Below are positions 912 through 64,000 of a DNA stretch of 64,000 bases, one piece after another. Made by a program: the position numbers and the translations under genes. Below the pieces are notes generated by a model that saw nothing but the letters and a program-made list of their open reading frames with translations, was not told where the DNA came from and ran no database searches. The stretch is from Mobula birostris (lineage: Eukaryota), in NCBI RefSeq assembly GCF_030028105.1, contig NC_092402.1, forward strand, positions 51,170,352 to 51,234,351, in the 5' to 3' direction. Position 1 is the stretch's first letter. Each line of letters opens with the position of its first letter.

Positions 912-3900
912 CTATGGGACCGAGGACAGTACTGTCAGCATTCCAGGGCAGATCACTGGGTGGCAGGGGGGAGCCGGGGACAGGTAGAGTGTGGATTATA
1001 GGAGGGAAAGATGGATTGGGTGGGAGTGTGGGGCTCAGAGACGGGTAGGTAGGACAGGACCACAGCCACCAGACACACAGGGAGGGGGGATGGAGTGTGG
1101 GGACTGTATGGGTAGTGAGTTGGGGAGCAAATGCACACACAAGGTGGGGGTGTGTAAGAGAGATCTATAAACACACACACAGAACTCCCAGGTAAGATGG
1201 GCTCTCCATGGGGAGAGTATGCGAGGATCAGGGATGTGGAGCTGGGGATTTATGGGTCAGGGGTTCAAAGGTTAGGGTGCATGTCCCTTGTCACCTGATC
1301 CTCAATGCTGGGGTCAGGGACACTGATCTGGTTCATTGATGAAAAGGGTCTCCCCGTGGATGAAGTGGGGGGACCTCCCCTGGCCAACTGGAGCATGTGA
1401 GAGTCCGCAGAGCCAGGTACCTACCTGCTGGGAAAGTACTTGTTACTGTTGAGCAGGCAGGCAGCTCCATCCAGAGTGTGTCTCGTGTAGTCAATAGCAG
1501 GGCACTGAAAGCAGAGATCACAGTGAGTGGAGGGGAGGGAATGTGGCAGGGTAGAGAGTGAGGGAGAAGATGGGGGGGGAGAGCACAGTGAAGGGGGATG
1601 GAGGGAAGTGGAGAGGGTGGTGAAAAGGGGAAGGAGGGGAGAAGGAGGGACAGAGCACTGAAGGGGGATGGGGAAGGGGAGAGGAGACGGAGAGAGCGAT
1701 GAAGGGAAAAGGAGAGCAGTGGGAGGGGAGAGGCTGAGCAATGTGGTTGAGGGAGGGAGAGCATGGTGAAGTGGAAGGGAATGGTGGGGAAAGGGAGAGC
1801 AGTGGGTGAAAGTGAGGGGGAGAGAGGGTTGATGGCAATAACGTTCTTGTGCACAAATTACTTTTAGGCAGCCAGTTCCTGGTTGGGAAGGTATGTTGGA
1901 AGTTCAGAAATATGTAAGGGTTGATATGGGGTTTTGGGTAAAGCCACAGCTGCAGTTTGGGTCCTCTGATTTAAGGACACACTGTCACTGGAGGCAGTCC
2001 TAAGGAGATATATTGGGCTAATTCCTGGGACCAGAAGGTTGTCCCATCAGAAGGGGGTGGACAGCTCGGGTCTGTATTCCTGTGGAGTGTAAAGGAACGA
2101 GGAAGTACTTTATTCCAACACTTGGACCCCAAGGGGAGGTGATATGAGATGTAGGAGAGTCTTGAACGAGTAGACAGTTACAGGGTTGGGGACGGGCATT
2201 TAACACTGACACTGTGGGAACTACTCTCAGAGGGAGGAAATTCTCTACTCCTCCCTAGAGAGAGTGGAGGCCTGATCACTGAGGGGGGATGTAAAGAGTT
2301 GGGAGATAAATGTTTAAAAGATGGCTGGGAGGAGATTATGGGCTGTTGGGAACAAAAGGGTGGATAAGGCCTGGGGTACCAAATGGTGGGACAGGATAAA
2401 GGAACTGAGTGACAGTTCCTATCGCCTCCCCATCTCCCCATATCAACAGCTTCAGGTTACTGCACCGGGGAAATCCACCCCCGCTCCAGTCTCTCCCATC
2501 TCTCCCTGTAACTGCAATGTTCCCACATCCTGGCATCACTGGAACTGGAGTTGGTGCTCCAGCGCAGGTGCTCTGACTGGAGTTATGCAACAGGCCCTTT
2601 GGCCCATTGAGTCCTTGTGATAATCAAGTATCCACATTCCCTGGCCCCCTTTTAAATCACCATATTTCCTTACATCATGAAGGAGGCCATTTCGGCCTAT
2701 CGGGCCCCAGTTTCATGACCCAGTCTCCTGTTCCTTCAGGGATGGGACTGTGGATTTCAGGAGGTGCCTCTGCAGGAGAGCTCGGTCAGGGCAGGAGGAA
2801 AGTTGGTGGGTGGTGGGGGGGTGGAGGAGTGGTTGGGCTATTGTTCAACCAGAGACCTGTGGCTGCTTCACCAGCCAGGGAACACTCGTCACAGCAGAAC
2901 ACTTCTCCCACCCAGCCCCCGGTGGCAACAGGCCTGCCTACCTCCTTTGGGGTCTTGTGTGCGGCACACAGGAAGATCCACTGCTCTGTTGCCGTCATCT
3001 GGGTGCAGGTGTCGGAATGGCACTCACTCTACAGAGAGAACACAGAAAGACAGGTCACATCACCGGGACACATTTGAGTGAGGGACAGAGAAAGAGAGAG
3101 AGAGAAACAGGACATGTTACTGGGACATGCTGGCAGGAGACAAGAGTCAAAGAAACACGTGACATGGAGTGCAGACAGGGACAGAGACACACAGACAGAG
3201 TGAGCATGAGATCAACAGACAGAGAGAGAGAAACAGACAAAGGGGCACATGCATACAGAGGGGGGAGAAGGGGGAGTGAACATGAGACGCACAGCCCTGC
3301 AGATAAAGTTAAAAAGTAGTCGATGCTCTGTCTTAGGGGAGCTCATCATCCTTGAACCTTGCTGAGGAGTTAACTTACTTGTAGTTTCACAGCCAAGTCG
3401 TTCAGTTCCAAGCAAAACTGCCTGAAATAAAACCCAAGTTCATTGTTTATTAGGTTGAGGCAAACACTTGAACATAACCTTCCAATGTGAACACATCAGC
3501 ACTATCCCATTCTTGGCATCCTTTCCGTTTAGCACCCATTTTAAAATTCTCATCAACTGTCTGGAAATACTGACTCAGCACCATCCTATTTCTGTGACCC
3601 TCTCCAGCCCTCACATCCCTCCTCCACTATTTCTGCCTCTGTCATCAGTGGTCATTCAGCTGCATGCACACCAACCAGATTTATTTCCCTCCCCACTGAG
3701 GACTGGGTGAGAGCATGGGTGAAGGGCTGGGCGAGTGTGAGAGTCTAGATGAGAGTGAGGGACAGGGAAAGGGTGAAGTACAGGTGGGACAGAAAGAGCA
3801 GGGCACAGGGGAGTGGAACTCAGTCGCTCAAATGGCCAGCACGCTCCCATTGGTGCTCAGTGTTAACAATCGGAGGCACCGTAGATGGCAGATGCTGGAA

Positions 3901-6900
3901 CACGAAGCAACACAGGAGAATCAGGAGGAACCCACTGGACCAGGAGTCAGAATTGAACAGCAGATGTTTGTGGGCAAGACCCTTCACTCACATGAAGTGA
4001 CCCTTCAATGCTGAAGAGTCCATTGCTGATGTTGCCTTACCTACTTAGTTCCTTGTATTGCTATAAATGGATGAGATTTTAATTTAGATGTCTGTGGGCA
4101 CACACCAGTGGAAGTGGTGGGTCAGACTACATCCACTTCACTACCCCTACACCCTTCCCCAACCCCAACTCTGCCTTGGGCCACTATGATCCCAGCAAGG
4201 CCCTCACCGGAGATGCTCATATTTCCAGACGCCCTCATCCTGCCCCTCCGGTGGTTCCAGGATCTTCTCGATGTCCGATGCGTCATCGCGGATGCTCTGC
4301 TGGATGTACTATGGGTGGAGGGGGAAAGGGGGGGTGGAGAGTGGGGGGAGTGATGGGTGAGGGGAGGGCAGGAAGAGAGAGAGAGAGAGAGAAGGGGGTT
4401 GATTCTGGGATTGAAAGGCTTATCATATCAGGAGCTCTGGGTTTGTACTCTGGAATTCAGAAATATTACGTGGTGGGGGGTTGTTCTCATTGAAACCTGC
4501 CGAATGTTGAAAGGCGTCGATAAAGTGGATGTATCCTAAGACATAGGAACTGAATTTGGCCATCCAGCCCATCAAGTCCACTCCACCATTTCATCATGGC
4601 TGATCCTGGATCCCATTCAACCCCATACACCTACCTTGGCATATCCCCTTTGACTTCTACAAATTTTTATCAATGCACCATAGGAAGCATTTTATAAAGA
4701 TGCACCACAGCTTGGTACAGCAACTGCTCTGCCCATGACTGCAAGAAACTGCAGAGAGTTACAGATAGAGCTCAAAACATCACAGGAACCAGCCTCCCCT
4801 CCATGGACTCTGTCTGTGCTTCGTTGCCTCAGTAAAGCTGCCAGGATAATCGAACAGCCCACCCACCCCAGACATTCTCTCTTCTACCTCCCATCAGGAG
4901 AAACACGTACCACTAGGCTCAAAGACAGATTCTATTCCATGGTTATAAGGCTCTTAGATGGACCTCTTGTATGACCAGTTTCACTTTATTCTTTATTGTT
5001 ATAGTTTTACCTCAATGCTTCTGTGTAATGATCTGATCTGTATGAACAGTACACAATCGGAGGCACCGTAGACGGCAGATGCTAGAACACGAAGCAACAT
5101 GGGAGAATCAGGAGGAACTCACTGGACCAGGAGTGAAAGACAAGCATTTCACTCTTGGTACATGTGACAATAATAAACCAATTTCACTTTCTTCAACTCT
5201 CCTGCTGGTGGTAACATCTCCATTTCTACCCTGTAATGTCCACTCGGGATCCGAATTTGTAATTTTGTTTATTATTGTCACATGTACATACCAAGATGAA
5301 ATATACAACTTGTTCTGCGTGATATCCATACAGATAATTTCAAGACACAAGTACACTGACGTAGTACAAGTGAAAAGGAATAACCGAATGCAGAATAAAG
5401 TGTTACAGAGAAAGTGCAGTACAGGCAGACAATAAGGTGTAAGGTCACAATGAGGTAGATTGTGAAGTCAAGTGTGAAGGTCACTGGAACAGGTTTATTC
5501 TTGTTGCATGTACTGTGATACAGTGAAAAGCTTGTCTTCCATACTGTTCACACAGATCAAATCATTACACAGTGTGTTGAGGTAGAACAGGGTAAAACAA
5601 TAACAGAATGCAGAATGTAGAGGTCAAAAGGCCATCTTAGAGAACAGTTTAACATCCTACTAACAGTGGAGTAGAAACTGTCCTTCAACCTGGTGGTGCG
5701 TGCTTTCAGGATTTTGTATCTTCTGTCCGATGGGAGAGGGGTGAAGAAAAGAGAATGTCCAGTGTGGGTGGGGTCTTTGGTGACGTTGGCAGCTTTACTG
5801 AGACAGTGAGAAGTGTAGACAGAGTCCATGGAGGGGAGGCTGGTTTCTGTGATGTGCTGAGCTGTGTCCACAACTCTCTGCAGTTTCTTGTGGTCACAGG
5901 CAGAGCAGTTGCTGTACCAAGCTGTAATCCAGACAGGATGCTTTCTATGGCGCATCGATAAAAATTGGTAAGGGTTGGTGGGAAATGCTGAATTTTTTTA
6001 GCCTTCTGAGGAAGTACAGGGTCAGGACAGGCTATTGACCAACTCTTTTGTTTAACTAATACTGAGGGAAAGGTTGATGTCAGAACACCACGCCACTAGG
6101 CTATCTCCTTCCTGTACTCCAATGCGTCCTTATTTGATATGTGGCACACTACAGTGGTATCATCTGCAAACATGTACATGGAGCTAGAGCAGAATCTGGT
6201 CATGCAGTCACAAGATTATTGAGGGGTCATTTAACACTGAGGTATGTAAGGACTTCTGCTACAGACAGTGGGGGAAATCGCTGGAATTCTCTGCCCTCAA
6301 GGGTTGTGGAGGCCTGATCACAGGTGTAAGTTAAATAAGAGCTTTGGGTTTAGCAATGCACTTGGAACACCACTTCCACGCTGCGGTTTTCCCACAGTGC
6401 CACACTGGTCACTGGTGCTCCAATGCTCAGGAACCTTGAACAGAGTGCAGGGCGACTCTGGACGTACTCACCTGCTGCACAGCCAGGGTGCTGTCCATCT
6501 CATCCAATGACTCATTAGGCCAGTTGTAGAAGTCCTAGAGGATGGAGTGAAGCAAAACTGTAGGTGAGGAGGCTGGCCCAGTGATCAATCGATAGCATAG
6601 AAGCCAGTATAACGCTTTACAGTGCCAACTACTGGGGTTCAATTCTGCCACTGTCTGTAAGAAGTTTGTGACTGCGTGGGTTTCCTCCCACATTCCAAAG
6701 ATGTATGATGTATGAGTTCGGGTTAGTAATGCTGTGGGAATGCTATGTTGGCATGAACCCACAGGGGGAGGAAGCAGAGGGATTAATGGAGAGCAAAAAA
6801 GGTGTGAAGGAGGATGTGGGGGGGGGGAGCTCCAACTAGAGAGGTTGGGAATACTAAACAAGGAAAGGGACTGCAAGCAAGACAGCATAACTGGGGTAGT

Positions 6901-11304: not shown

Positions 11305-12405
11305 ACCTGGGCCTCTAAACCTCCTTCTGCAATTGGATCCTCAGCTTCCTAACTGGAAGACCACAGTCTGTGCAGATTGGTGATAACATATCCTTCTCGC
11401 TGACGATCAACACTGGTGCACCTCAGGGGTGTGTGCTTAGCCCACTGCTCTACTCTGTATATACACATGACTGTGTGGCTAGGCATAGCTCAAATATCAT
11501 CTATAAATTTGCTGACGATACAACCATTGTTGGTAGAATCTCAGGTGGTGACGAGAGGGCGAACAGGAGTGAGATATGCCAGCTAGTGGAGTGGTGTCAC
11601 AGCAACAACCTGGCACTCAGCGTCAGTAAGACAAAGGAGCTGATTGTGGACTTCAGGAAGGGCGAGACAAAGGAACACATACCAATCCTCATAGAGGGAT
11701 CAGAAGTGGAGAGAGTGAGCAGCTTCAAGTTCCTGGGTGTCAAGATCTCTGAGGATCTAACCTGGTCCCAACATATCAATGTAGTTATAAAGAAGGCAAG
11801 ACAGCAGCTACACTTTATTAGAGTTTGAAAAGATTTGGCATGTCAACAAATACACTCAAAACCTCCTATAGTTGTGCCGTGGAGAGCATTCTGACAGGCT
11901 GCATCACTGTCTGGTAATGGGGGGTGGAGGGGCTTCTGCACAGGACCGAAAGAAGCTGCAGTGGGTTGTAAATCTAGTCAGCTCCATCTTGGGTACTAGC
12001 CTACAAAGTACCCAGGACATCTTCAGGGAGCGTTGTCTCAGAAAAGCAGCGTCCATTATTAAGGACCTCCAGCACCCAGGACATGCCCTTTTCTCACTGT
12101 TACCATCAGGTAGGAGATACAGAAGCCTGAAGGCACACACTCAGTGATTCAGGAACAGCTTCTTCCCCTCTGCCATCCGATTCCTAAATGGACTTTGAAC
12201 CCATGAACACTTTTTTAATATACAATATTTCTGTTTTTGCATGTTTTAAAAAATGTATTCAATATACGTAATTGATTTACTTGTTTATTTATTATTATTA
12301 TTTATTTTTTCTCTGCTATATTATGTATTGCATTGAACTGCTGCTGCTAAGTTTAACAAATTTCACGTCACATGCCGTTGATAATAAACCTGATTCTAAT
12401 TCTGA
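11305..12405 (+). mobile_element. Young Rex1/Babar-type LINE, 3' portion
   Basis: [42 protein letters not shown]; attct-type 3' tail. A near-identical 3' end lies in reverse at about 47347-47702. Confidence 0.9.
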
Positions 12406-47330: not shown

Positions 47331-47819
47331 TCTAATTATGCCATATCAGAATCAGGTTTATTATCACCAGCATGTGACGTGAAATTTGTTAAAAGCAGCA
47401 GCAGTTCAATGCAATACATATGAGAAAAAAATAATAAATAAAACAAAAAAATCAATTACGTATATTGTAACAGGTTGTTAACCCCGAAATACTGTATATT
47501 AAAAAAGTGAGGTAGTGTTCATGGGTTCAATGTCCATTTAGGAATCGGATGGCAGAGGGGAAGAAGCTGTTCCTGAATCGCTGAGTGTGTGCCTTCAGGC
47601 TTCTGTACCTCCTACCTGATGGTAACAGTGAGAAAAGGGCATGTCCTGGGTGCTGGAGGTCCTTAATAATGGATACTGCCTTTCCGAGACACCGCTCCCT
47701 AAAGACAAAGGATGGAGAAAAAGAAACTTCCAGATACTTACCTCGCCCAAGAAGCCTGATTTTGCCATTGCCAAAATCCACCCACTTTTAAATGGCCCAC
47801 TCAAACAATATGTGGAAGG

Positions 47820-51500: not shown

Positions 51501-54500
51501 AGGAGAATCATAAGGGATATGTTAAGAGCAAAAGATTTGCAAGAGACAAAATTATTCCTCTGGAAGATCAGAATGGTAATCAAAAGAAATGGGGGAGATC
51601 TTAAATTGATTTTTTGCATCTGTATTTACTCGGGAGATGTGTGTAAAATCTATAGAAGTGAGACAAGGCAGCAGCGAGGCTATGGACCCTGTACAGATTA
51701 CACAGGAAGAGGAGTTTACTGTCTTGAGGTAAATCAGTGTGGTCAAATCCCAGGGCCTGACAAGGTGTTCCCTCGGATCCTGTGGGAACCTGGGGTGGTG
51801 GAGGAGACAGAAACAGGGACTTTTAAGAGATGTTTGTTCATTTCCATAGATGCTGTCTGACCTGAGTCCCTGCAGTATTTTGTGTGTCTTTTTACCTTTG
51901 CAGTTTCTTAACTCTACTCCCAAAGATTCTACCTCTTTCAATCCTTTTTCCCTTTTTAAGAATTTGATTTCATTTTGTACTAACAGACTCACTCCACTGC
52001 ACCCTCCACTTACCTGCCTGTCCTTTCAATACAATGTGTATTCTTGGATGTTAAGTTCCCAACTATGATCTTTCAGCAACATCTCAGGGAGGCCACAATG
52101 TCATACCTACCAATCTAACTGTGCTACAAGATCATCTACCTTATTTCGTATACAGCGTACGTTCAAATATAACACCTTCACTCCTGTATTCATTAACCTT
52201 TTCAATTTTGCCCCCATGTTGCAGAAGTTAAATTTATACCCCTTTCTAAACCTTTTGTCTTCTGGACACTTTTGTAATCCCTCCTGTACTCTTTTTCCCT
52301 TAACTTTTCCAGACTGTTGAACACCACCTCTCATTATTTAGTTTAAAGCTCTTTCCATGTTCTAATTTCTCCCAGATTCTACCCCTCATCCACAGATGGG
52401 GGACAGTTCACAGCAGGAGGAATGCGGAGCATCTGGGGGGGAACGCATGCAGTCATGGCAAGGGTATGCAGACACACAAGTGTTAGGGTCGAGGGCAAGG
52501 GGAGATGGTGGGGATAGGTGCTTCCCTCCCTTCCTGAGCAGCTGTAGGAATGGAGTGCTGGGTTAATGGTTCTGCGGCTGAGACTGGGAGATTGGTGAGT
52601 TTGAAGATCGAAAGCTGGGGTGGGTGAATAACTGTGTGTTCTCTCGCTGTCAGGCACCCCTGATCCAGGCCATCTTCAACCGAGATCGGGAGGAAGTGAA
52701 GTCGCTGATAAACAGGAGTGAGGACGTCAATGGATTGGTATGCGGAGCTGCACACACTCAGGGTGTTGATGGGGAGAAGAACGGGGATGCGTAGTGAGGA
52801 CATCAGTGGGATGTGGGGACCTGCACACTCTGGGTGGTGATGGTGTGAGGGAGCAGGTGGGGAATATGTAGTGAGGACATCAGTGGAACCATGGAGCGGG
52901 ATAGGGAGTGTGTAGCAAGGACTGGAGTGTGTGTCAACTATATGCAGCACTCACTCCCCATTATGACGGGTGACTGATGCCTGGCTTTGTTCACAGGACC
53001 AAGAGAAGCGGACACCACTTCATGCAGCAGCCTACCTGGGTGATGTTCAGATCATCGACATGCTCATCCAGTCAGGTAAGGCTCTGTCATTCTGGAACCC
53101 CTTCACTGACACTTCTCTACTCCCACCGTACAAGCCCCCTGACCCACCTCCTGTGTGTGCATGCGTGTGTGAGACCTTCCTCTGTGTCTCTCATCCTCCC
53201 CATCCCTGTCATCGTATATCACCTTTGACCCTGACCCTCCTCTCTGCATACTTCACTCCCCCCAGCTTCATGCATATATCACTGATTCTTGAAACTGCGG
53301 TGAGAACATGTCCCACTAAGAAAAGTGCTAATTCCGTTGCAAATGAATAACATTTTCTTAGTTAAAATAATCAGGGTTGATCATCTGAGGGTCAAATGCA
53401 ACATTTTTTCATATGTTTGTTTTTAATTTTATAAATTAAATGATTATATGATAGCCCAGTACCCACAAAATCAGTTGTCCTCAGACAAGAGATTATCATT
53501 TCAATTTGATAAAAAAGTGTGAAAAAATCATTTAAAATGTATAATATATATGCCAGATGAAAGAATAGAGTGAAAAACCTCTTTAAAATTAAAAGTAGTG
53601 AATTTTCAACAGTATTTATCTTATTTTGTGGTTGCTCAAAATGTGTCCCAAGTTTTTGTCAACACTGTCAGACATTTATATAAAAAAAGTAATAAAATCA
53701 GGCAACCACATGGTCAACTATATTCCTGAGGACCCCCTTCCCACCCTCCACATCTGCTAAATGCAACAAGGTCAAACAAGCTCCTGTAAGTTTGCTATTT
53801 TTTTCAATAATTTTTATATATTTATTGATGTTGCTACTGTCATGATCATGACGTGTCAACACTGTCTCTTTTGTATAGAAAGAATTATTTTAAATTATGT
53901 CATAAATTTATGCATTTTAAGTAGAAGCCAGAGGCAGTTAGCAACAGAGGGAAAACAAGATGGCTTCTGTATACAACTCATGCATGTCATGTTTAAAAAA
54001 AACCGTCAGGTTTTCTGTCTAACAGTGGTGACAAAAACATCCAAATCATCCTCAGTGGAGGCTTGAATATAATTTATGATCACAATAAATAGTAATATGG
54101 CTTGTAATGTTTCTTTAACCTCTTTATTTATAATATACAGAATTTCCTCTTTGTTTCTTCCACACACAGGCCCACAATATTTCCTTACTAAATGTATCCT
54201 CAATGACTAAAACCATAAATGAATTTAGTTGCACCATTTCATAATCATTTTATAAAATTTCACTAAATTAAACATAATTAAATTCATACTAATTTTGCAC
54301 AATTTCATAGTAATTCCATTAAATTCTTACCTTCCTTTTATGTATTTTAGGAAGTTATGGCTAGGCAGCAGCTATCAGTGGAGGAGCAAAGGAGAAGAAG
54401 CAGGGAATACCAAAAAAAGTGGAGAGAGAAAATATATAGTGAGCCCGAGTTAAAGGAGGAATACCTGAGAAAGGAAAAGCAAAGATGGAAGAAGAGAGTA

Positions 54501-57500
54501 GAGGATTGGAAGATAAAAACTATCAGTGCATTGAATGAAAGGGAAAAGAGGAGTAAGAGAAAGGCGTGGAAACGTAGACAGCAAGAGTCAAGAGAGCGTA
54601 AGAGAAAGGGCCCAGATCGCCCAGAAACTCCCCCAGATAGTCCATTGAATCAGACTATACAGGAGCCAGCTCGCAGTAGGCAGTCTATAGCAGGTGAAAG
54701 GGAAAGAAAGAAAACAAGAGCAAGATACTTGAGAGAGATGAAAGCTTTGAAAAATAAACTTCGAGATAATAAAAGATGGGAACAAACTGAAAAAGCGTTG
54801 GCGACGAGAGCAAACTAGAAATAAAAAAACACAAGAATCACCAAGAAAAAAAAACAGAGCAGATGCTACAGGGAAGCAAACTCAAAAACCCCTCCATCAA
54901 GAAAACCCTGCTCTTCCACAACTGTCTCATTCAAGAATTTAATCAAAACAAAAATAATTTACAGTCTGCTCAAACATCAAAGAACTTGACTCTGTCAGGC
55001 AGGGTTCTAAAGAAATATCGCCTGATACACCAGACAAAGCAGTTCGGGCTGACATACAACACACTGCGAAAGAGAAGTACTACAGACAAAAAACCCTCTT
55101 ACATTCAAACAATAACCCCGATGGTTCAGGATTTCTACCATAATGCTGCACAAATGATGGCGGACAAACAGGACACAATAACATGGAAGAAAATAAAGCA
55201 TCAGAGAATGATTCTGACTGACACAATATTCAATCTTCACGGGGAATTCATCAAAAAGGAACCAGCTGTAGAACTCAGTTATTCGTCCTTCTGTGCTTTA
55301 CGTCCATTCTATGTCACAGCACCAAAACCATCAGATTGAAAGACATGCCAGTACCATGAAAATGCAAAGCTGATGTTTGATGTCCTAACAGCATATGGTA
55401 TTGACAAGTCTAGCAGATTGGAGGGTAGTTTTGAACTTGTGTGTTGTTCTCAGACAAGCGAGGCATGTCTCTGTGCTCCTGCACCCGATGTCTCCACAAG
55501 CACACACTTCCCACCCCACAGCAAGAGTTGACCGATGTTGAGTGGCAGCGATGGGAACGAGTTCAGGACCAAACAGCAGATGGAATTCACTGCAATACAA
55601 GATATGTGAAGCGCAATGGCACACTGGCAGAGCTCATCAAACTGTATGAAGACAAACTAAAGGGTGAAACAACAACACGTGTGTGCTTGGTTCAGAACCA
55701 GTCCAGGGAATACAGGAGCTTGATACAGAACTGCAATGAAAGCACTGTAATTGACGTGGACTTTTCTGAGGCTTGGAAATATAGTTCTGAGGTACAGTCA
55801 TGCCATCTTGGTCAGAACCTCCCACAGCTCAATCTGCGCAGTGGCATGTACACACAAAAGTAGAGAAAGCAGGATTTTGTATAATATCAGAATCCAAACG
55901 ACAGGATGCTTCTGCCATTTGGACTCACTTGGAACAAGTCCTCAGAGATATTTGTTTAAAATTTCCAAAAGTTGATACCATTCAATTTTGGTCAGATGGC
56001 CCCAGCAGCAGTACAAAAACAAGAACTTCTCTCTCCTCTGCAATGTCCCTCCAACCCTGGGTTTCCAGAGAACAACCTGGAACAACTTTGCAGCTTCACA
56101 TGGGAAGGGAGCTCCAAGTGGCATTGGGGGAACTGTGAAAAGGACTGCAGAAGGCCTTGTACTACGGGGGAATGGCGTTGAGCATGGCAAGATCTTCCAT
56201 GAGATGGTTGGGAGAAGCCTTTGCAGTACTCAGCTCTATTGTATTGTTGAAGGTGACATGCAGACATATGATGCAGTCCTTTCTCAACCACTATAACCTG
56301 TACCAACAACAGGGAAAATCCATCAGGTTATATCTTACGGAAACAGCATCCATTGCAGATAATTGTCATGTTTCTGTAGTGAACCACAGATGTGCCAGTG
56401 TTTCAGCCCAACAGCATTTCAGTTGTCTGAAAATACACATGCCAGGCTACAGGCTGAGGAGAATGATGGCCCTACCACAATGGGAAAGAACAGAGGGCCT
56501 TTGGCAATGCTGATGGAGGAAATGGAGTAGGAACCCCAGAGTGGTCCTGATGGGACTACGACAGATATATCTGCTGGTGTCATTAATGATGGAGGTTGTC
56601 TTGCAGTCCTTTATGACCAAAACTGGTGGTTAGCAAAGGGCTGTCCCTGTGGATGCTCATAATCAAGATGTTCAAGTGGAGTTCTTGCATCCTCATGGGC
56701 CCAACACGCGTTTCCATCCAAAACCAGGTGGAAAGGATATGTGCTTCGTACCAGTCGAAAATATTCTGGTCAAACTGATGGAGCCATCATTACCAGGTCA
56801 TGCAAGCAGGATGAGGGAGATCTACCACCTGTCTGCAGAAGTCATGGACTTCATAGAGGAGGAGCATATTAATCATCTACTTCCTGATAAAGCTGACTGA
56901 ACGTTTTCGAAGATTTTCAAACCCAGAAATGGATGGAGGAGGTTGCACCGAAATATTGCTTGATTGCTGAGACTTTGTTCTATAAACATATATGTTTAGA
57001 TTTCTTAACACTTAAAATTTTTTCTTTTCAAAATTAAAACCTGTTTTATCCAAATTCTCAAGAATCAGTGATATGTCTCCCACCAGTCTGTTCGCCCCAT
57101 CCCTGGACTCCCTCTGCATCTGCTTCCCCCAGGCACTCCCCCCTCCCTCCTCAATGCATTTCTGAGACACTGGGCACACAGTCTGTCTCAAGCCCTCTGC
57201 TGCCTGGTTGAACTGTTCTTTCCTGGTGAGTCAGACCCAGCCCCTCTCTGTCCCACAGGAGCTAAAGTCAATGCGAAGGACAGCGCCTGGCTGACCCCAC
57301 TGCATCGCGCAGCAGCTTCTCGTAACGAGGTAAGGAACCCTGTTCTACTTTCTGAGCCAGCGTTGGGTCAGTGGGGCGCACTGTGTGAGAGGGGGTCGGG
57401 GAGGGAGACATGAAAAAGGGTGCAGGGGGAGAGGGAGGAAAGATGGGGAGAGAGAACTGTGGGAGGGGTGGCAAGGAGACGAGGGGGTAGCAGTGAAGGG

Positions 57501-59883
57501 GGATGGAAGAAAGAGGAAGTGCAGAGGGAGGAGGGAGCACCACAAAGGTGAGGGAAGAGGGAGAGCTGTGGGAAGGGGAATAGGGAGTGCCACGGAAGTG
57601 AAGTACCAAGCAGTGCAGCAGTTTCAAGGGAAGGAGTGATGTTTGATGGGTGGTGACCGTACCCTCCTCTCCCCACCCCCCACAGCGAGCTGTGAGCGTG
57701 CTGCTGAAGCACTCGGCTGATGCCAATGCCCGAGATAAGTTCTGGCAGACTCCTCTACATGTGGCGGCTGCTAACAAGGCTACCAAGTGCGCTGAACTTC
57801 TTCTGCCGCTGCTCACCAATGTCAATGTGGCCGACCGTACAGGGCGGACAGCACTTCACCACGCTGCCTACAGCAGTCATCTGGAGGTACCTGGCGAGCC
57901 CGGGGGAGGGGGTGGGGGAGATGCATTTGGGATGTGGCATGAGAGAGGGGTCCTGTGAAGTGGGGTTGGTGTTTCTCTGCACTTGCTGTCCTTGCCCTTC
58001 TGGGCAGGAAGAGATGTGTGGTTTGGGAGATGCTGTCGCAATAGCTTGGGTGAGTGAGTACAGTGGGTTTTGCAGACTGCATTTACTGTGTGCAGTTGGT
58101 GGGGTGGGATTGCCGATTGAGCGGGATACTTTTTTCCCAGGTGGTGTCAAGCTTCCTATAGACGGTGGAGAGGTAAGGTTGTATGCATGGACTAACTCCA
58201 CTCCAGTTCCCTCTCCATCCCTGTCACTTCTCCAGAGAATTTTTTCACCTGGAGCGGGATGAACTTATGGAATTTTCTCTGAGATGGGGGATGTTCTGTG
58301 GCAAATCTACTGCCCAGTGAATGTTTTATTTCATTAATTAGCGAGTGAAATGTGGGAGCTGTATTCTCTGACTTGCTCATCCTCATTCTGACTGTCTATT
58401 CCCTGAGGTAGGCAGTGATGTGGGAGAGCTGTTTTTGTTCCTCACCCCCCCCCCCTCACTCTACCTGTTCCCTGGGGTAGGGAGTGGTGTTACCTGTGTT
58501 CCATCCCCCTTACACTGCCTGTCTGTTGCAGATGGTACAGCTGCTGTTGAACAAGGGGGCTTGTGTCAGTGCCTGTGACAAGAAGGAACGTCAACCCATT
58601 CACTGGGCTGCCTTCATCGGTGAGTGTGGGGAGTTTCAGACCTGGTCTGGTGCTTCACCCCTGTCTGTCCCAGAGGTAGAAAACATCTGTGGGGTGGAGT
58701 GTGACCATGTACTTCACGTTTCTCCTCCTCTCCCACCCCACTTTTCCAGGATCCATGACTGGGGGGAGAGGAGAATGAGGTGTTTCTTGATCATTGTTCC
58801 AGCCTGAGATGGATGGGGACTTTGGGGAATTGGCTGACATGTTGATTATGGCATGGGGTTGAGGTGTGGGTGGCTTATCTTAGGGGTCTGAGGCTGTGGG
58901 GGTGAGGTGCGGTGGTTTGCTGTAAGTGGGGGGAGTGGTGGGTCTGGAGGATTCACTGCCCATTCCTGATCTCTGCCCTCTGTTCCAGGGCACCTGGACG
59001 TGATGAAGCTGCTGCTGTCCCGTGGGGCAGTGCCAAGCTGTAAGGATGTGAAGGGATACACCCCGCTGCACGCGGCTGCCTCCAGCGGAAAGTTCGAAGT
59101 GGTGAGGTACCTGCTGAAGCTGGGTTTGGAGGTAAGTCATGTCATTCCTCACCCTCACCCTCACTCCTCGTCCCTCACCTTCCCCTCTCAACACCCCACC
59201 CCTCCCACCTCCTCTCCATCCTCTCTTCATCCCTTATCTCCTGATTCAGCACTCCTCCATCACCCCTGTCCTCCATGCAGCCCTTTCCACCCTCTTCCTC
59301 ACCCCTACCATCACTCCACACTGGCCTCACCCTCCCTTCCCCCCCACACACACACATTTGCTTCCCCCCCCCCACACACACATTTGTACCCTCTCGTCCT
59401 GGGCTGAATGTCTGTGTTGATGTCCCCAGATCGACGAGCCCAATGCCTATGGGAACACAGCCCTCCACATTGCCTGCTACACTGGACAGGACGCTGTGGC
59501 CAATGAGCTGGTCAACTACGGGGCCAACGTCAACCAGCCCAACCTCCTGGGCTTCACACCGCTGCACCTTGCTGCTGTCTCCACCAACGGAGCTCTGTGC
59601 CTGGAGCTGTTAGTCAACAATGGGGCCGATGTCAATGTTCAGGTGGGTCTGCAGCCCTCTCCCACCGCGCAGGGTCTCCAACCCATCGGCTCCCCCCACC
59701 GATCTTGGGGTGTGTGGTGGCTGGCCTAGGGGATGGCAGGTGGCTGTGCTGATACCGCAGGGCAAGGTCACCCCCCCTCTCTCAGTCATCTCCTTTTCTT
59801 CCAGAGCAAGGATGGGAAGAGCCCTTTGCACATGGCTGCGATCCACGGCAGATTCACTCGATCTCAAATCCTCATCCAGAATG
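48228..59883 (+). CDS. ANKRD52: ANKRD52 (PP6 regulatory ankyrin repeat subunit C), coding exons 1-9; continues beyond the window
   Basis: Exons 48228-48254, 52654-52737, 52997-53075, 57259-57329, 57686-57886, 58532-58619, 58989-59131, 59430-59642 and 59805-59883. Residues [34 protein letters not shown] and [18 protein letters not shown] favour ANKRD52 over ANKRD28/44. The gene neighbours CS as in human. Confidence 0.93.
50590..52350. mobile_element. CR1 LINE fragments in ANKRD52 intron 1
   Basis: [17 protein letters not shown] (EN start), [19 protein letters not shown] remnants. Confidence 0.7.
52654..52737 (+). CDS. ANKRD52: ANKRD52 exon 2
   Basis: [28 protein letters not shown]. Confidence 0.92.
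52997..53075 (+). CDS. ANKRD52: ANKRD52 exon 3
   Basis: [26 protein letters not shown]. Confidence 0.93.
53276..57074 (+). mobile_element. Sola2-like DNA transposon (about 3.8 kb) with a decayed transposase at 54357-56900
   Basis: TIR ATATCACTGATTCTTGA at 53276-53292 and inverted at 57058-57074. Motifs [24 protein letters not shown] and [24 protein letters not shown] are spread over several frames because of frameshifts and stops. Confidence 0.85.
57259..57329 (+). CDS. ANKRD52: ANKRD52 exon 4
   Basis: [23 protein letters not shown]. Confidence 0.93.
57686..57886 (+). CDS. ANKRD52: ANKRD52 exon 5
   Basis: [37 protein letters not shown]...[10 protein letters not shown]. Confidence 0.94.
58532..58619 (+). 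CDS. ANKRD52: ANKRD52 exon 6
   Basis: [29 protein letters not shown]. Confidence 0.93.
58989..59131 (+). CDS. ANKRD52: ANKRD52 exon 7
   Basis: [47 protein letters not shown]. Confidence 0.93.
59430..59642 (+). CDS. ANKRD52: ANKRD52 exon 8
   Basis: [38 protein letters not shown]...NNGADVNVQ. Confidence 0.94.
59805..59883 (+). CDS. ANKRD52: ANKRD52 exon 9
   Basis: [26 protein letters not shown]. Confidence 0.94.
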
Positions 59884-59892
59884 GTAGGTCTA

Positions 59893-60116
59893 TGTTGTGT
59901 ATGTGGCCTGGCTACACAACAGTGCTATTAATAAAAACGCTGGAGACGGGAGCTAAGTTTCGTGGTTTTTTATTGGCAGAATCCGAACTTTAACACACAC
60001 GTACAGATCAATACGCGCCTAATAACGCATGCTCAATATGCGCCTAATAGCGCATTCAAAGACGTTTTACTAAAACATAAAGTAGTCCCTTATTATACTG
60101 TAGGCTATACGGTACA
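59893..60116 (-). repeat. 3' LTR
   Basis: Direct repeat of 62910-63130, with about 13 differences by eye, many at CpG. Confidence 0.95.
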
Positions 60117-60436
60117 CTCCTCCCCTTTTATTTTAATAGTGTATCAACTTTTTTTTTACTGGGTCACTATGCTAAACAAATATGTTTACCCATACAAACA
60201 TCGACCATTTGTTTACTTAGTAATTTAATAATATTAAATTATAACAAGCTTTTTTTTTACTTTTGGTCTAAGACCCATTTATAACTCAAGTCTCTGGGGG
60301 TCTTCTCTGCCTCTCCAGGTAACATCTGTCAATAAACTTGTTTGTTTTAATACAGATTTCCATATAAAAGTCATGAAAAGTTGACCTCTGAACATAGGGA
60401 GTTAAGAAGATGTACGCCTCCAACTTGCTAAGAGTT

Positions 60437-61367
60437 CTAGGCAGCAGATCGCCTCCGTATAATGAAGACTCCTCTGTGCAGCTGTCCTAGATATATACAC
60501 ACCTTTGTGCTATCACTTGTCTTCCTTGCCCATATCTCATATGTTCCAACTGAGCTAATTACACAGCCAATCTCCGTATTCTCCTTAGATTCCAAATAGA
60601 TAGCCTGACCTTTATGATACCATCTCTTATCGTAATGTAACTTTCCATCTTCTATTTGTGCTTCATATCTTTGTGCTGGTGATTCAGCAGGAGTGCTGGG
60701 AAGATGCTCAGGAGAAGACGGAGATGCTGGTCTTTTTGGAGATTTAAGCTTATTGAGAGTTTGCAGATCTTCCATTATCTGTTCATCTGTTAACAAGCAA
60801 TTTAACTCCACAGGTGCTGGTTTTCGTCTTTTGTCTGTAATTGGAACAGGGTCATTTGGTCTCCTTAGTTTCCTAGTCGTTATTGGCTTTACCTCCATAG
60901 AATCTCCTGTGAGTTCCATTGTTAGCCTCTCATTCTCAATCATCTTTTTTTCTTCTAACTCAATCTTTTTATCTTCAAATTCCTTCACTGCTGCTTTCTT
61001 CTCTTTAATATAATTCCTTTCAACTCATTCTGTCTCCAGTTGCAGAAGAAGCTCTGCATTTTGTATTCTTTCCTTGTATTGTTGATCTAGTTTCTTCATC
61101 CTTTTCATGATACTCCTGCAAAGTGCCTTCCTGTAACTGCTGTAGCTGTCTTTTGAGAGATGTCAATTTCTCCTGGTACATCTGCTCTTTTACTTCCAGG
61201 TAGTCTTCATCATCCTGCTTATTGGCAATATCTGTCTCCCTTGCATCCTCTGTATCTTCATCCGATTTGCGGCCACGGATACTGCGGTCGTCCTCATCGT
61301 CGACGCTGTCTGGCTCCTCCTCGTCATTCTAATAGTCAACAATGGGTGAGAGGAGAGCTGCAGACAT
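60437..61367 (-). pseudogene. SUDS3: Processed SUDS3 (SDS3) retrocopy inside the LTR element
   Basis: Intronless: [79 protein letters not shown]. Lesions: TAG at 61331-29, a +1 frameshift near 61108, TGA at 61027-25, and an apparent in-frame deletion near 60955. Confidence 0.95.
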
Positions 61368-61389
61368 CTTCCCCGCCTTGCTGCCCTCC

Positions 61390-62527
61390 TTTGCTGACAC
61401 ATCTAGTGCCTTGATGGTGTGCCAATCCAACTGGATTTTCCTGAGCCATTCACGTCCCAGCAACGGTGGTCCTCCATTTTTCAGTACAGAGAGGTTCAGC
61501 TGCTGTGTTTTGTCTCCGTAGGTCACTGTCACTTTAATTTTACCTTTGGGATGCACTTTCTTTCCTGTGCAAGTCTTTAGCAGTAGTTTAGTTCGTTTCA
61601 GAGGTATGTGAGAAAACAGTCATTTGTAGTCGTGTACAGAGATCACTGTTAAAGCTGAGCCTGTGTCCAACTCCATTTTCAGTCTCACACCTGCCACTTG
61701 TGGAGTGATCCATATTACTCTTTGATTATCTGTCTCTTTCATACTGTGAAGTTGCAGACAAGACAGTTCACTTTTGTCTGAACTGCTTTCTTCCATTTTG
61801 TGTACATTGTTGTGTTTTCCTTACTGGGGTTTCTTACTTCTCTGTATTTTGTCCTTTTTCTGCTGTTTACTAGCTTTGCATACTCTGCCCGTGTTTGCCA
61901 TAGTTTCTGCATTCTTTGACAGGCATCAGGGTCATGTGACATGCTCCCACAATGGTAACATTTCTTTCTTTCATTTCTGTTCAGTGACATTTTAGTCGTA
62001 GCATGTTCCAGAGATTTTTGTTGAATCTCTGAAGCAGCCTGTGCTGCTATTTCCGTTGATATTGTAATGTTCAGTGCCTTCTCTCATGTGAGGTCTTTTT
62101 CACCCAGGAGCTTCTTCTGTGTGGTTTCACAGTGCATGCCACACACTCAATGCATCTGATAGACCAGCTCCAAATTGACAATGTTCTGATAATTTGCGCA
62201 ATTCAGCACAATATTCAGAAATGCTTTCATTTTTGCTTTGATTCCGTTTGTGAAATTTAAATCTTTCAGCAGTGACCAGTGGTTTGGGATTTAAATGCTG
62301 TTGGAGAGTGTCACTATTTGCTTGAACGTTTTGTCAGCTGGCTTTTCAGGCGTTAACAAGCTCCGTAGCAGCCCGTATGTTTTTGCTCCCGTAATACTGA
62401 GTAAGATGTTGGCTTTCTTTTCATCATAAACACCGTTAGCCTCACAATATAACTCCACTCTCTCAATGTAAGTTGCCCAGTCTTCAATGCCACTATCAAA
62501 TGCTGTAATGGTTCCAATCATCGCCAT
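61390..62527 (-). pseudogene. Decayed gag-protease region of the Gypsy element
   Basis: EDWATYIERVELYCEAN..GAKTYGLLRSLLTPEKP..AERFKFHKRNQ..ESISEYCAELRKLSEHCQFG; aspartic protease LDTGS. Confidence 0.9.
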
Positions 62528-62681
62528 CCTTGTTATGTTAATTAAGCCCTGTTTTCCCTTTGTTTTCTTTTTGACTCGTGTGTTCTTTTTGCTAGTGCCA
62601 TGAGCGCACTCCGTCTAGATGTGTGTGTGTCTGTCTTTTTTATCTCCCTTCTGGGGCAGGCAGACCCTCAGCCCCTGGGGG

Positions 62682-62843
62682 TCAACGCTGGCTGTGGTCT
62701 CGGCGGGATGTGCTGCGGCTCCGACTGTGTCTCTTTGTCTCCCGATGTTCCCGACCCCGGCTGTGCTCCCGCTTCCTTTCGGACTCGCGGCCTTGCTCTG
62801 CCTCCTTCTCCTGCTCCTTGGCTTGTTCCATGCGCTCTTCCTC
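62682..62843 (-). pseudogene. ACIN1: Captured fragment of the ACIN1 (Acinus) C-terminus in the LTR element leader
   Basis: [53 protein letters not shown] compared with the recalled ACIN1 end ..[41 protein letters not shown]. Confidence 0.75.
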
Positions 62844-62909
62844 CGAGTGTCGTTATCAGTTAAAACAAGGTGTTCCGATACGATGTAGGTTCATTAGCCT
62901 CGTCGCCAA

Positions 62910-63130
62910 TTTGTTTATGTGGCCTGGCTACACAACAATGCTATTAATAAAAACGCTGGAGACGGGAGCTAAGTTTCATGGTTCTTTACTGGCAGAATCC
63001 GAACTTTAACGCACACATACAGATCAATACGCGCCTAATAACGCATGCTCAATATGCGCCTAATAGTGCATTCAACGACATGTTACTAAAACAAAGTAGT
63101 CCCTTATTATACTGTAGGCTATATGGTACA
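62910..63130 (-). repeat. 5' LTR
   Basis: Followed on the minus strand by the PBS; flanked by the TSD GTCTA. Confidence 0.95.
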
Positions 63131-63260
63131 GTCTACAACTGCATCTGTGGGATCAGAGACATGAGTGATGCAAGTAGGTCCTTTGGCCCAACAAATGCGT
63201 GGTGACCCAGTTCACCCACATTAGGACCATGTCCTTCTACACCTCAGCTGGTGACCCCCT

Positions 63261-64000
63261 CCCTATGTTCCCTCTAAGCTGTGCGCGCGCACGCACTCTT
63301 TTCAACCAGCGCACAAAGGCAATTAATGTGCGCACAAAAGGTTAGTTACCTAAAATAATGTAGTAATTAATAATTATACTTATTGAAAATAATCTTTTAG
63401 CTAAATGTTTCTGTTAATTAGTTAGTTTTTCAAATACCACAATGCACGTCACAAATTTGCATCACCTCACCTTTTCTGTTCCTGTTTGTACAGCTACATC
63501 ACGGCAGCAGCCATCTTTGGCAGACAGTGTTCATATCGTAAAGTTTACAAAGATCTGTTTCAAATCCTGTAGATAGCTTACTAAGTTTTTATTGAAAAAA
63601 ATATTGATTCACTATGTCGAATTCAAAAGAAGCGAAGGGCGTGAAGCGCAAAAGAACTGCAAATTTGTTTAAAGTTAAAAGGTGCAAATTTAAAGAAATT
63701 GCAGAGGCCTCTGAAAATGAAGCTGTTGCTTTCAGACCACTTAATGAAATCAAATGGTTATCTTGACACTTTGCATTGCAGGCAATAATAAAAAATTATG
63801 AGGCACTGATCACATACTTTGAAGAAGATCAGTCAAATGACCCTGTGGCTAAATACAGTCACGAGAAATTGATAAACATCACATACAAAGCAGCTTTACA
63901 GGTTTTAAGTGATGTCTTTGATGAACTGACTGCAGTGTGCAAGATTCTGCAAAACAGTGGCCTGACAATGATTGATTCACTTCATTTTGCGCGAGGCAAA
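63261..64000 (+). mobile_element. hAT (Tip100/ZNF862-like) DNA transposon, internally deleted; runs off the window
   Basis: Terminus ctatgttccctctaagctg. ORF from 63614: MSNSKEAKGVKRKR..LNEIKWLS*HFALQAIIKNYEALITYF..LSDVFDELTAVCKILQ, containing the hAT RWLS motif with a stop at 63764. Confidence 0.75.

Follow-up and report, generated by a model that had tools for sequence, protein, structure and literature searches.

Among described systems, those closest to the locus reported here are the LTR-mediated retrocopies of Tan 2016 (PMC5131818). According to the part of that paper on which we draw, a host mRNA there lies between two LTRs in place of part of the internal ORF, poly(A) is lacking, retroposition is secondary and non-autonomous, and multi-gene chimeras occur; the retrocopies in flies tend to cover only part of the transcript (median 26%) and to occupy few insertion sites, "in-frame" refers to the parent gene, and the named species include no cartilaginous fish. 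Maize Bs1, as portrayed in the source excerpts at hand, gained fragments of three genes by serial capture of host cDNA, exists in 1-5 copies with common switch points and encodes a translated chimera. In the acutely transforming gag-onc retroviruses, which depend on a helper, host cDNA takes the place of pol and continues the frame of the viral protein upstream. Processed pseudogenes made by LINEs are marked by a poly(A) tail and a TSD around the cDNA.

The ray Gypsy family reported here, whose cargo is SUDS3, shows neither of these LINE marks at the cargo and behaves like an LTR-mediated retrocopy: an intronless mRNA replaces an ORF between both LTRs, poly(A) and a cargo TSD are lacking, and the copies are dispersed (as seen at the protein level). 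The capture mechanism itself was already known from the part of Tan 2016 (PMC5131818) cited above. Unlike the retrocopies of flies, however, the ray family holds nearly the whole CDS, occupies 15 other loci in 4 species in addition to the window, and is in frame with the element protease. With Bs1 it shares host cDNA gained by serial capture and switch points common to the copies, but it carries a corepressor subunit almost whole, and its copies are mostly neutral. In layout it recalls the gag-onc viruses (pol replaced, helper-dependent, cargo in frame), whereas it is a Gypsy without env that was amplified in the germline, and its putative fusion is known from sequence alone.

The window, that is, the whole stretch of 64,000 nucleotides of Mobula birostris DNA that was analysed, contains on its minus strand a Gypsy element of 3,238 bp (63130-59893) with a 5-bp TSD. 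Its LTRs, TSD, primer-binding site (PBS), polypurine tract (PPT) and Gypsy-homologous gag and protease identify it as a non-autonomous Ty3/Gypsy LTR retrotransposon, composed as follows:

63131-63135, minus strand: TSD (TAGAC), 5' side
62909-63130, minus strand: 5' LTR, starting with TG and ending in AT, against CA in the 3' LTR (end +/-3 nt)
62898-62908, minus strand: primer-binding site, TGGCGACGAGG
62528-62897, minus strand: leader, 370 nt, 54% GC, with an Arg/Ser-rich open stretch inside (62852-62685)
61761-62527, minus strand: gag, ATG at 62527, zinc-knuckle remnant at 61960, with three frame changes and two stops
61398-61760, minus strand: aspartyl protease and start of the PR-RT linker (WHTIKALDVS), LDTG at 61670, stop at 61622
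61368-61397, minus strand: 5' junction with 7-10 codons of probable SUDS3 5' UTR, in frame and stop-free, breakpoint at 61397-61388
60437-61367, minus strand: intronless SUDS3 CDS, ATG at 61367, stop codon at 60439-60437
60331-60436, minus strand: presumed SUDS3 3' UTR, about 106 nt, ATTAAA at 60351-60346, without poly(A)
60279-60330, minus strand: end of Gypsy pol, last ~17 codons and stop, with one frame change
60117-60129, minus strand: polypurine tract
59893-60116, minus strand: 3' LTR, TG...CA, with AATAAA at 59974
59888-59892, minus strand: TSD, 3' side, equal to host-gene intron positions +5 to +9
59790-59883, plus strand: exon of the host ankyrin-repeat gene (start approximate)

The two LTRs are direct repeats with TG...CA ends and 94.5% identity over 220 aligned sites, of which 12 differ (9 transitions; 6 at CpG). 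The resulting K2P distance of 5.7% agrees with the divergence of about 6% that a preliminary description of this DNA had estimated by eye. The ratio of observed to expected CpG is 1.0-1.3 in the LTRs (59893-60116 and 62910-63130) versus 0.35-0.41 in gag-PR and the cargo. We take a serine tRNA to be the match of the primer-binding site at 62908. Part of the leader, read in a different frame, recurs in XP_062921164 of M. hypostoma, matching at 75% over 40 aa. The leader's Arg/Ser/Glu-rich stretch of 56 codons (62852-62685, minus strand) was considered as a third captured gene and rejected, the atlas returning only weak look-alikes (best 0.83, low recognition). The gag matches the Gag N-terminus (residues 1-66) of Hemitrygon akajei XP_072884955 at 77% over about 66-70 aa, and the protease matches the K02A2.6-like P0146 of Chanos at 74%. 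Pfam matches to aspartyl protease and to Sds3 were both under the curated cut-offs, and Rfam gave 0 matches over window positions 56000-64000.

Gag, protease and the C-terminus of pol have homologues in the K02A2.6-like Gypsy elements of teleosts and a skate (Chanos P0146, Trichomycterus P0147 and Amblyraja P0157), and full-length relatives encode gag-pol as one ORF. The closest intact relatives have the domain order PR-RT-RH-IN and, unlike the ray element in the window, retain RT, RNase H and integrase. The pol remnant is detectable only when the reading spans its frame change, and single-frame BLASTP found no match for it. Against five intact relatives, its score was reached by 0, 13 and 0 of 1000 shuffles for three; with the remaining two, 102 and 161 shuffles did so (not significant). 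The room between the end of pol and the PPT is too small for env. No second copy of the element occurs within the 64-kb window, and protein searches did not find a helper Gypsy in rays.

The element lies antisense to the ankyrin-repeat host gene, presumably of the ANKRD28/44/52 family, having inserted 9 nt past a splice donor. The TSD leaves this donor site intact (59884-59892), and an AATAAA on the plus strand of the 3' LTR falls in host-gene sense about 55 nt into the intron. Elsewhere in the window, broken plus-strand ORFs in another intron of the ankyrin gene (54351-56900) resemble what we take to be a DNA-transposon transposase (WSDG and SHGKG motifs). A direct repeat pair (82 nt, 94%, 1,187 nt apart, at 3866-5134) and an inverted pair (192 nt, 95%, 12020-12211 and 47514-47705) are probably dispersed repeats.

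The passage from element to cargo is open. On the minus strand the protease frame runs uninterrupted from 61619 via GPPLLGREWLRKIQLDWHTIKALDVSAK-EGSKAGK to the SUDS3 ATG at 61367 and on to codon 12. Intact relatives share WH.IKAL followed by a variable linker, so the element-derived part stops directly after that motif; putative protease cleavage would fall near IKAL. The linker before the ATG is probably SUDS3 5' UTR, a reading supported by the bamboo-shark model P0006, which translates its own SUDS3 5' UTR in frame as GEGGLAGK-M, against EGSKAGK-M in the window. The chance of an in-frame, stop-free junction over 7-10 codons of such composition is 0.29-0.30. On the far side of the cargo, the longest A run between the SUDS3 stop and the pol remnant is 4. 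Where the parent isoform models have insertion and skip points, the cargo reads across with no intron. The 6-mer AGATGT is common to both junction zones and belongs at each end to element-derived sequence.

Compared with SUDS3 of rays and skates, the C-terminal part of the cargo shows 87% identity. The cargo CDS contains stops at 61331 and 61027, a frameshift at ~61108 and two single-codon deletions, as well as inherited changes: an 8-codon deletion at 60956/60955 and the substitutions S43R, P187T and S271G (numbered after M. birostris XP_072103779). The segment lost in the 8-codon deletion falls in the coiled-coil fragment solved as 4ZQA, and its 8 residues are not a heptad multiple. In the portion of Marcum 2022 on which we draw, the SUDS3 coiled coil is the region of antiparallel dimerization. 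With further stops at 62086, 61823 and 61622 and frame changes at ~62297, ~62146 and ~61915, the window copy is dead also far upstream of the cargo, in gag-PR.

Much of the preliminary description stands. A SUDS3 mRNA captured in the place of pol, an open frame from protease to ATG, probable SUDS3 5' UTR at the junction, an ATTAAA without poly(A) and the return of Gypsy sequence (near 60330, with the last ~17 pol codons) were all borne out, and its estimate that one junction in three would be in frame by chance is close to the computed value. That SUDS3 replaces pol is accurate insofar as everything after the protease is gone, except that those last codons were kept. Its count of two stops and a frameshift fits the cargo but omits the three stops and three frame changes of gag-PR. 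The same in-frame junction stands in XP_062921164 and XP_072884955. The proposed Gag-PR-SUDS3 polyprotein is possible as a product, given the one gag-pol ORF of intact relatives, but the release of full-length SUDS3 from it is not supported, since the inherited 8-codon deletion and two single-codon deletions shorten the cargo.

Fifteen RefSeq loci, on different scaffolds or otherwise distinct, share markers of the element:

M. hypostoma, 7 loci: XP_062910978, XP_062921164, XP_062897021, XP_062914480, XP_062911214, XP_062911948, XP_062913587
M. birostris, 3 loci: XP_072100482/3, XP_072094239, XP_072098599
Hypanus sabinus, 2 loci: XP_059812296, XP_059800869
Hemitrygon akajei, 3 loci: XP_072884955, XP_072920092, XP_072900925

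These come from protein searches, a representative search and cluster look-ups, and as only loci annotated as coding are included, the count is a lower bound. The best 120 of 950 cargo matches comprised cartilaginous-fish SUDS3 and several Mobula "SDS3-like" models; among the matches listed, sharks, skates, Pristis and Narcine had no copy. For comparison we used 118 orthologue or isoform rows, leaving out six: four of unnamed source, a human row and an ambiguous one. The segment KENLIAEL is absent from 11/11 copies that cover it (10 models and the window) and present in all 118 rows, in one of them substituted; alternative splicing as the source of the 8-residue gap is ruled out, with 0/118 orthologue or isoform rows lacking the segment. 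P187T is found in 9/9 copies and 0/118 orthologue rows, S271G in 8/8 copies and 6/118 rows (a weak marker), and S43R in 7 of 11 copies. The protease-side junction is visible in 2/15 models: XP_062921164 of M. hypostoma consists of a piece of element leader and ALDVSAKEGSLVGK in frame with SUDS3, and XP_072884955 of H. akajei of the Gag N-terminus and HTIKALDVWTKEGNSAGK-M. In XP_072098599 the UTR part of the junction appears, by eye, in another frame. The other copies are known as protein models, and all but these three are tied to the family by shared markers alone. The SUDS3 start Met is replaced by Ile in XP_062921164, XP_062911948 and, by eye, XP_072098599, through a shared subfamily change or independent decay.

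In the protein tree, the 13 copies of SUDS3 type form one clade among the parent genes of rays (UFBoot 95), inside which they radiate as a star with no supported structure (internal support <=72). Markers common to the copies, a single clade and the absence of the markers from orthologue rows favour a single capture, and by these comparisons the copies evidently have a single origin. Because all would derive from one junction, their in-frame agreement is not independent. The markers are found in mobulids and stingrays, which would place the capture before the split of these groups, unless the element moved horizontally; we found no dated mobulid-stingray split in the literature. The sharing of the coiled-coil deletion, a check suggested in the preliminary description, thus holds in all 11 covering copies. 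For this deletion the lesion predates the amplification, a circumstance which that description had named as counting against its polyprotein. The search for intact copies which it also advised found no intact Gag-PR-SUDS3 protein among 69/69 longer matches, 23/23 junction matches or the best 150 of 3,923 representatives (weak negatives).

The three H. akajei models, annotated "YBX1-like" (XP_072884955, XP_072920092 and XP_072900925; P0153, P0201 and P0240), are SUDS3-Y-box chimeras. Residues 1 to about 50-57 of SUDS3, with S43R, are followed by a Y-box protein with its cold-shock domain, and in one of the three, XP_072884955, element Gag and junction pieces lie upstream. They sit on scaffolds of 63, 111 and 225 Mb. 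The frames over the SUDS3-Y-box junction are those of gene models, in which introns may have been placed across breaks. The arrangement reads as a second capture followed by a second amplification.

We examined 201 distinct changes in 13 copies, after masking by eye stretches in seven models as model artefacts. Of the 201 changes, 141 fell on sites that 95% or more of the orthologues conserve, against 73.5% expected if substitution were blind to conservation (p=0.30). Mean BLOSUM62 was -0.27 in the copies and -0.27 in a neutral simulation, versus +0.6 for recurrent orthologue changes. The window cargo has 21 changes in 306 residues, three of them inherited; the non-inherited ones comprise 18 missense changes and 2 stops, against 18.1 and 1.2 predicted from half the LTR divergence. 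This comparison of cargo and LTR divergence, likewise proposed beforehand, matches the expectation from LTR age, so that the cargo was still nearly the parent protein at insertion. On such evidence the cargo copies decayed neutrally after insertion. The stem of the copy clade carries two substitutions and the deletion, and its shortness fits quick amplification or purifying selection alike. One copy is unusually conserved: XP_062914480 of M. hypostoma (P0233) has the deletion and S43R, yet against an expectation of 15 changes its 159 residues contain only 4 (P=0.0007, or about 0.009 when all 13 copies are allowed for), most of them conservative. Its model stops short of the region matching 2N2H, presumably the segment that binds Sin3. 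The copy might be young, gene-converted or domesticated.

Passive carriage is the reading we regard as probable: one capture, helper-driven amplification, neutral decay and an in-frame junction due to chance. By analogy with the cases in Tan 2016, co-packaging, a double template switch and helper-dependent copying would account for the family. A spliced SUDS3 mRNA would have been packaged into a Gypsy particle. RT would have abandoned the element RNA close to where pol ends and resumed on the mRNA 15-20 nt past ATTAAA, about the polyadenylation point; after copying as far as the 5' UTR it would have rejoined the element in the PR-RT linker. Read-through transduction would yield an identical product. 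The chimera would have lacked RT, RNase H and integrase and, since it kept LTRs, PBS and PPT, could be copied many times by an intact helper. An early copying error may have removed the 8 codons between repeated Glu-Leu codons, and amplification would have come soon after the capture, before or around the mobulid-stingray split. Later, in the Hemitrygon lineage, a Y-box cDNA may have replaced most of SUDS3 in a second capture, the product being amplified anew.

The open junction invites other readings. A master element might have made Gag-PR-SUDS3, from which the protease freed a SUDS3 variant that aided the element, for example as a dominant-negative Sin3-HDAC subunit. A stop-free, in-frame junction directly after the conserved IKAL in 3 genomes, the single-ORF gag-pol of the relatives, the short stem and star tree, a deletion inside the 4ZQA coiled coil and dimerization region, and the apparent constraint on XP_062914480 all accord with it. 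The junction, however, represents one event with a chance of ~0.3, 12/13 copies decayed neutrally, no intact Gag-PR-SUDS3 is among 69/69 longer matches or the best 150 of 3,923 representatives, and the H. akajei branch spread after most of SUDS3 had been lost. Moreover, a non-heptad deletion in the dimerization region counts against a useful SUDS3, and a literature search joining SUDS3 to retroelement silencing listed no paper evidently on point. We consider this account unlikely. A fuller version is unlikely too: the in-frame Sin3-HDAC subunit, as a register-shifted dimer version, would have been selected as an anti-silencing or decoy factor during the spread in ancestral rays, later swapped for the Y-box in stingrays, and left as the constrained XP_062914480 in devil rays. 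For such a selected anti-silencing role, the Vandal/VANC-KIU transposons of Arabidopsis provide an analogy only; according to the source excerpts consulted, they are DNA transposons whose captured host domain is tied to silencing and has a demonstrated function, and nothing comparable is shown in rays. A selected gag-onc-like polyprotein is possible but unsupported.

The 5' junction, the 24-nt deletion and the Y-box junction (in model XP_072900925) are frame-preserving in appearance, and the open frame itself might have been favoured. Nonsense-mediated decay acts on long 3' tails; an out-of-frame junction would end translation early, leaving the element RNA with a long untranslated tail and exposed to such decay, and frame-keepers would be copied more. 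The inherited changes do preserve the frame while looking damaging (the 8-residue, non-heptad deletion; P187T at a site invariant in 118/118), and the Y-box junction of XP_072900925 reads through. On the other hand, protein databases favour open frames, spurious introns in gene models may hide breaks, deleting the stretch between repeated codons necessarily keeps the frame, and the other copies are known as protein models, not DNA; this explanation is unlikely. An origin without LTR capture, by a LINE-made SUDS3 retrocopy that landed in a Gypsy whose pol was deleted later, or by independent LINE retrocopies or segmental duplicates, is highly improbable. LINEs do predominate among batoid repeats in the consulted part of the manta genome paper, most vertebrate retrocopies are credited to LINEs in that of bioRxiv 10.64898/2026.06.26.734816, and AGATGT occurs at both junction zones. 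But that 6-mer is element-derived at each end and so no TSD flanking the cargo, there is no poly(A) tail, pol is missing exactly between the cargo ends, the window copy has its own 5-bp TSD, and independent retrocopies would not have a common deletion seen in 0/118 orthologue rows. Passive carriage is preferred, with the cargo most likely a passenger and its in-frame junction most likely due to chance.

We found no prior description of a SUDS3-carrying Gypsy family of rays in the literature. In the part of bioRxiv 10.64898/2026.06.26.734816 on which we draw, SUDS3 is mentioned once, as one of the five genes with most retrocopies in cartilaginous fishes; retrocopies are discussed there under LINE-driven formation and selective filtering, with no mention of LTR carriage of SUDS3. 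The gene is absent from the main texts of the manta genome and VGP papers, as far as these were covered. Other top retrocopy parents in the same part of the preprint, MIPOL1, SDF2L1, SLU7 and ZNF276 in cartilaginous fishes and PIWIL2 and DND1 in amphibians, could be element-borne too.

Gene capture by LTR elements in animals is known mostly from young, partial, low-copy events. What is new here is that one near-complete capture of a silencing gene gave rise to a multi-copy family in devil rays and stingrays, and then took up a second gene. If the published SUDS3 retrocopies are this Gypsy family, the top-five rank would reflect one transposon burst. Ray genes annotated in RefSeq as "SDS3-like" or "YBX1-like" may likewise be transposon copies rather than expansions of gene families. 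With many datable copies in chromosome-level genomes, whether a carried silencing gene benefits the element is directly testable.
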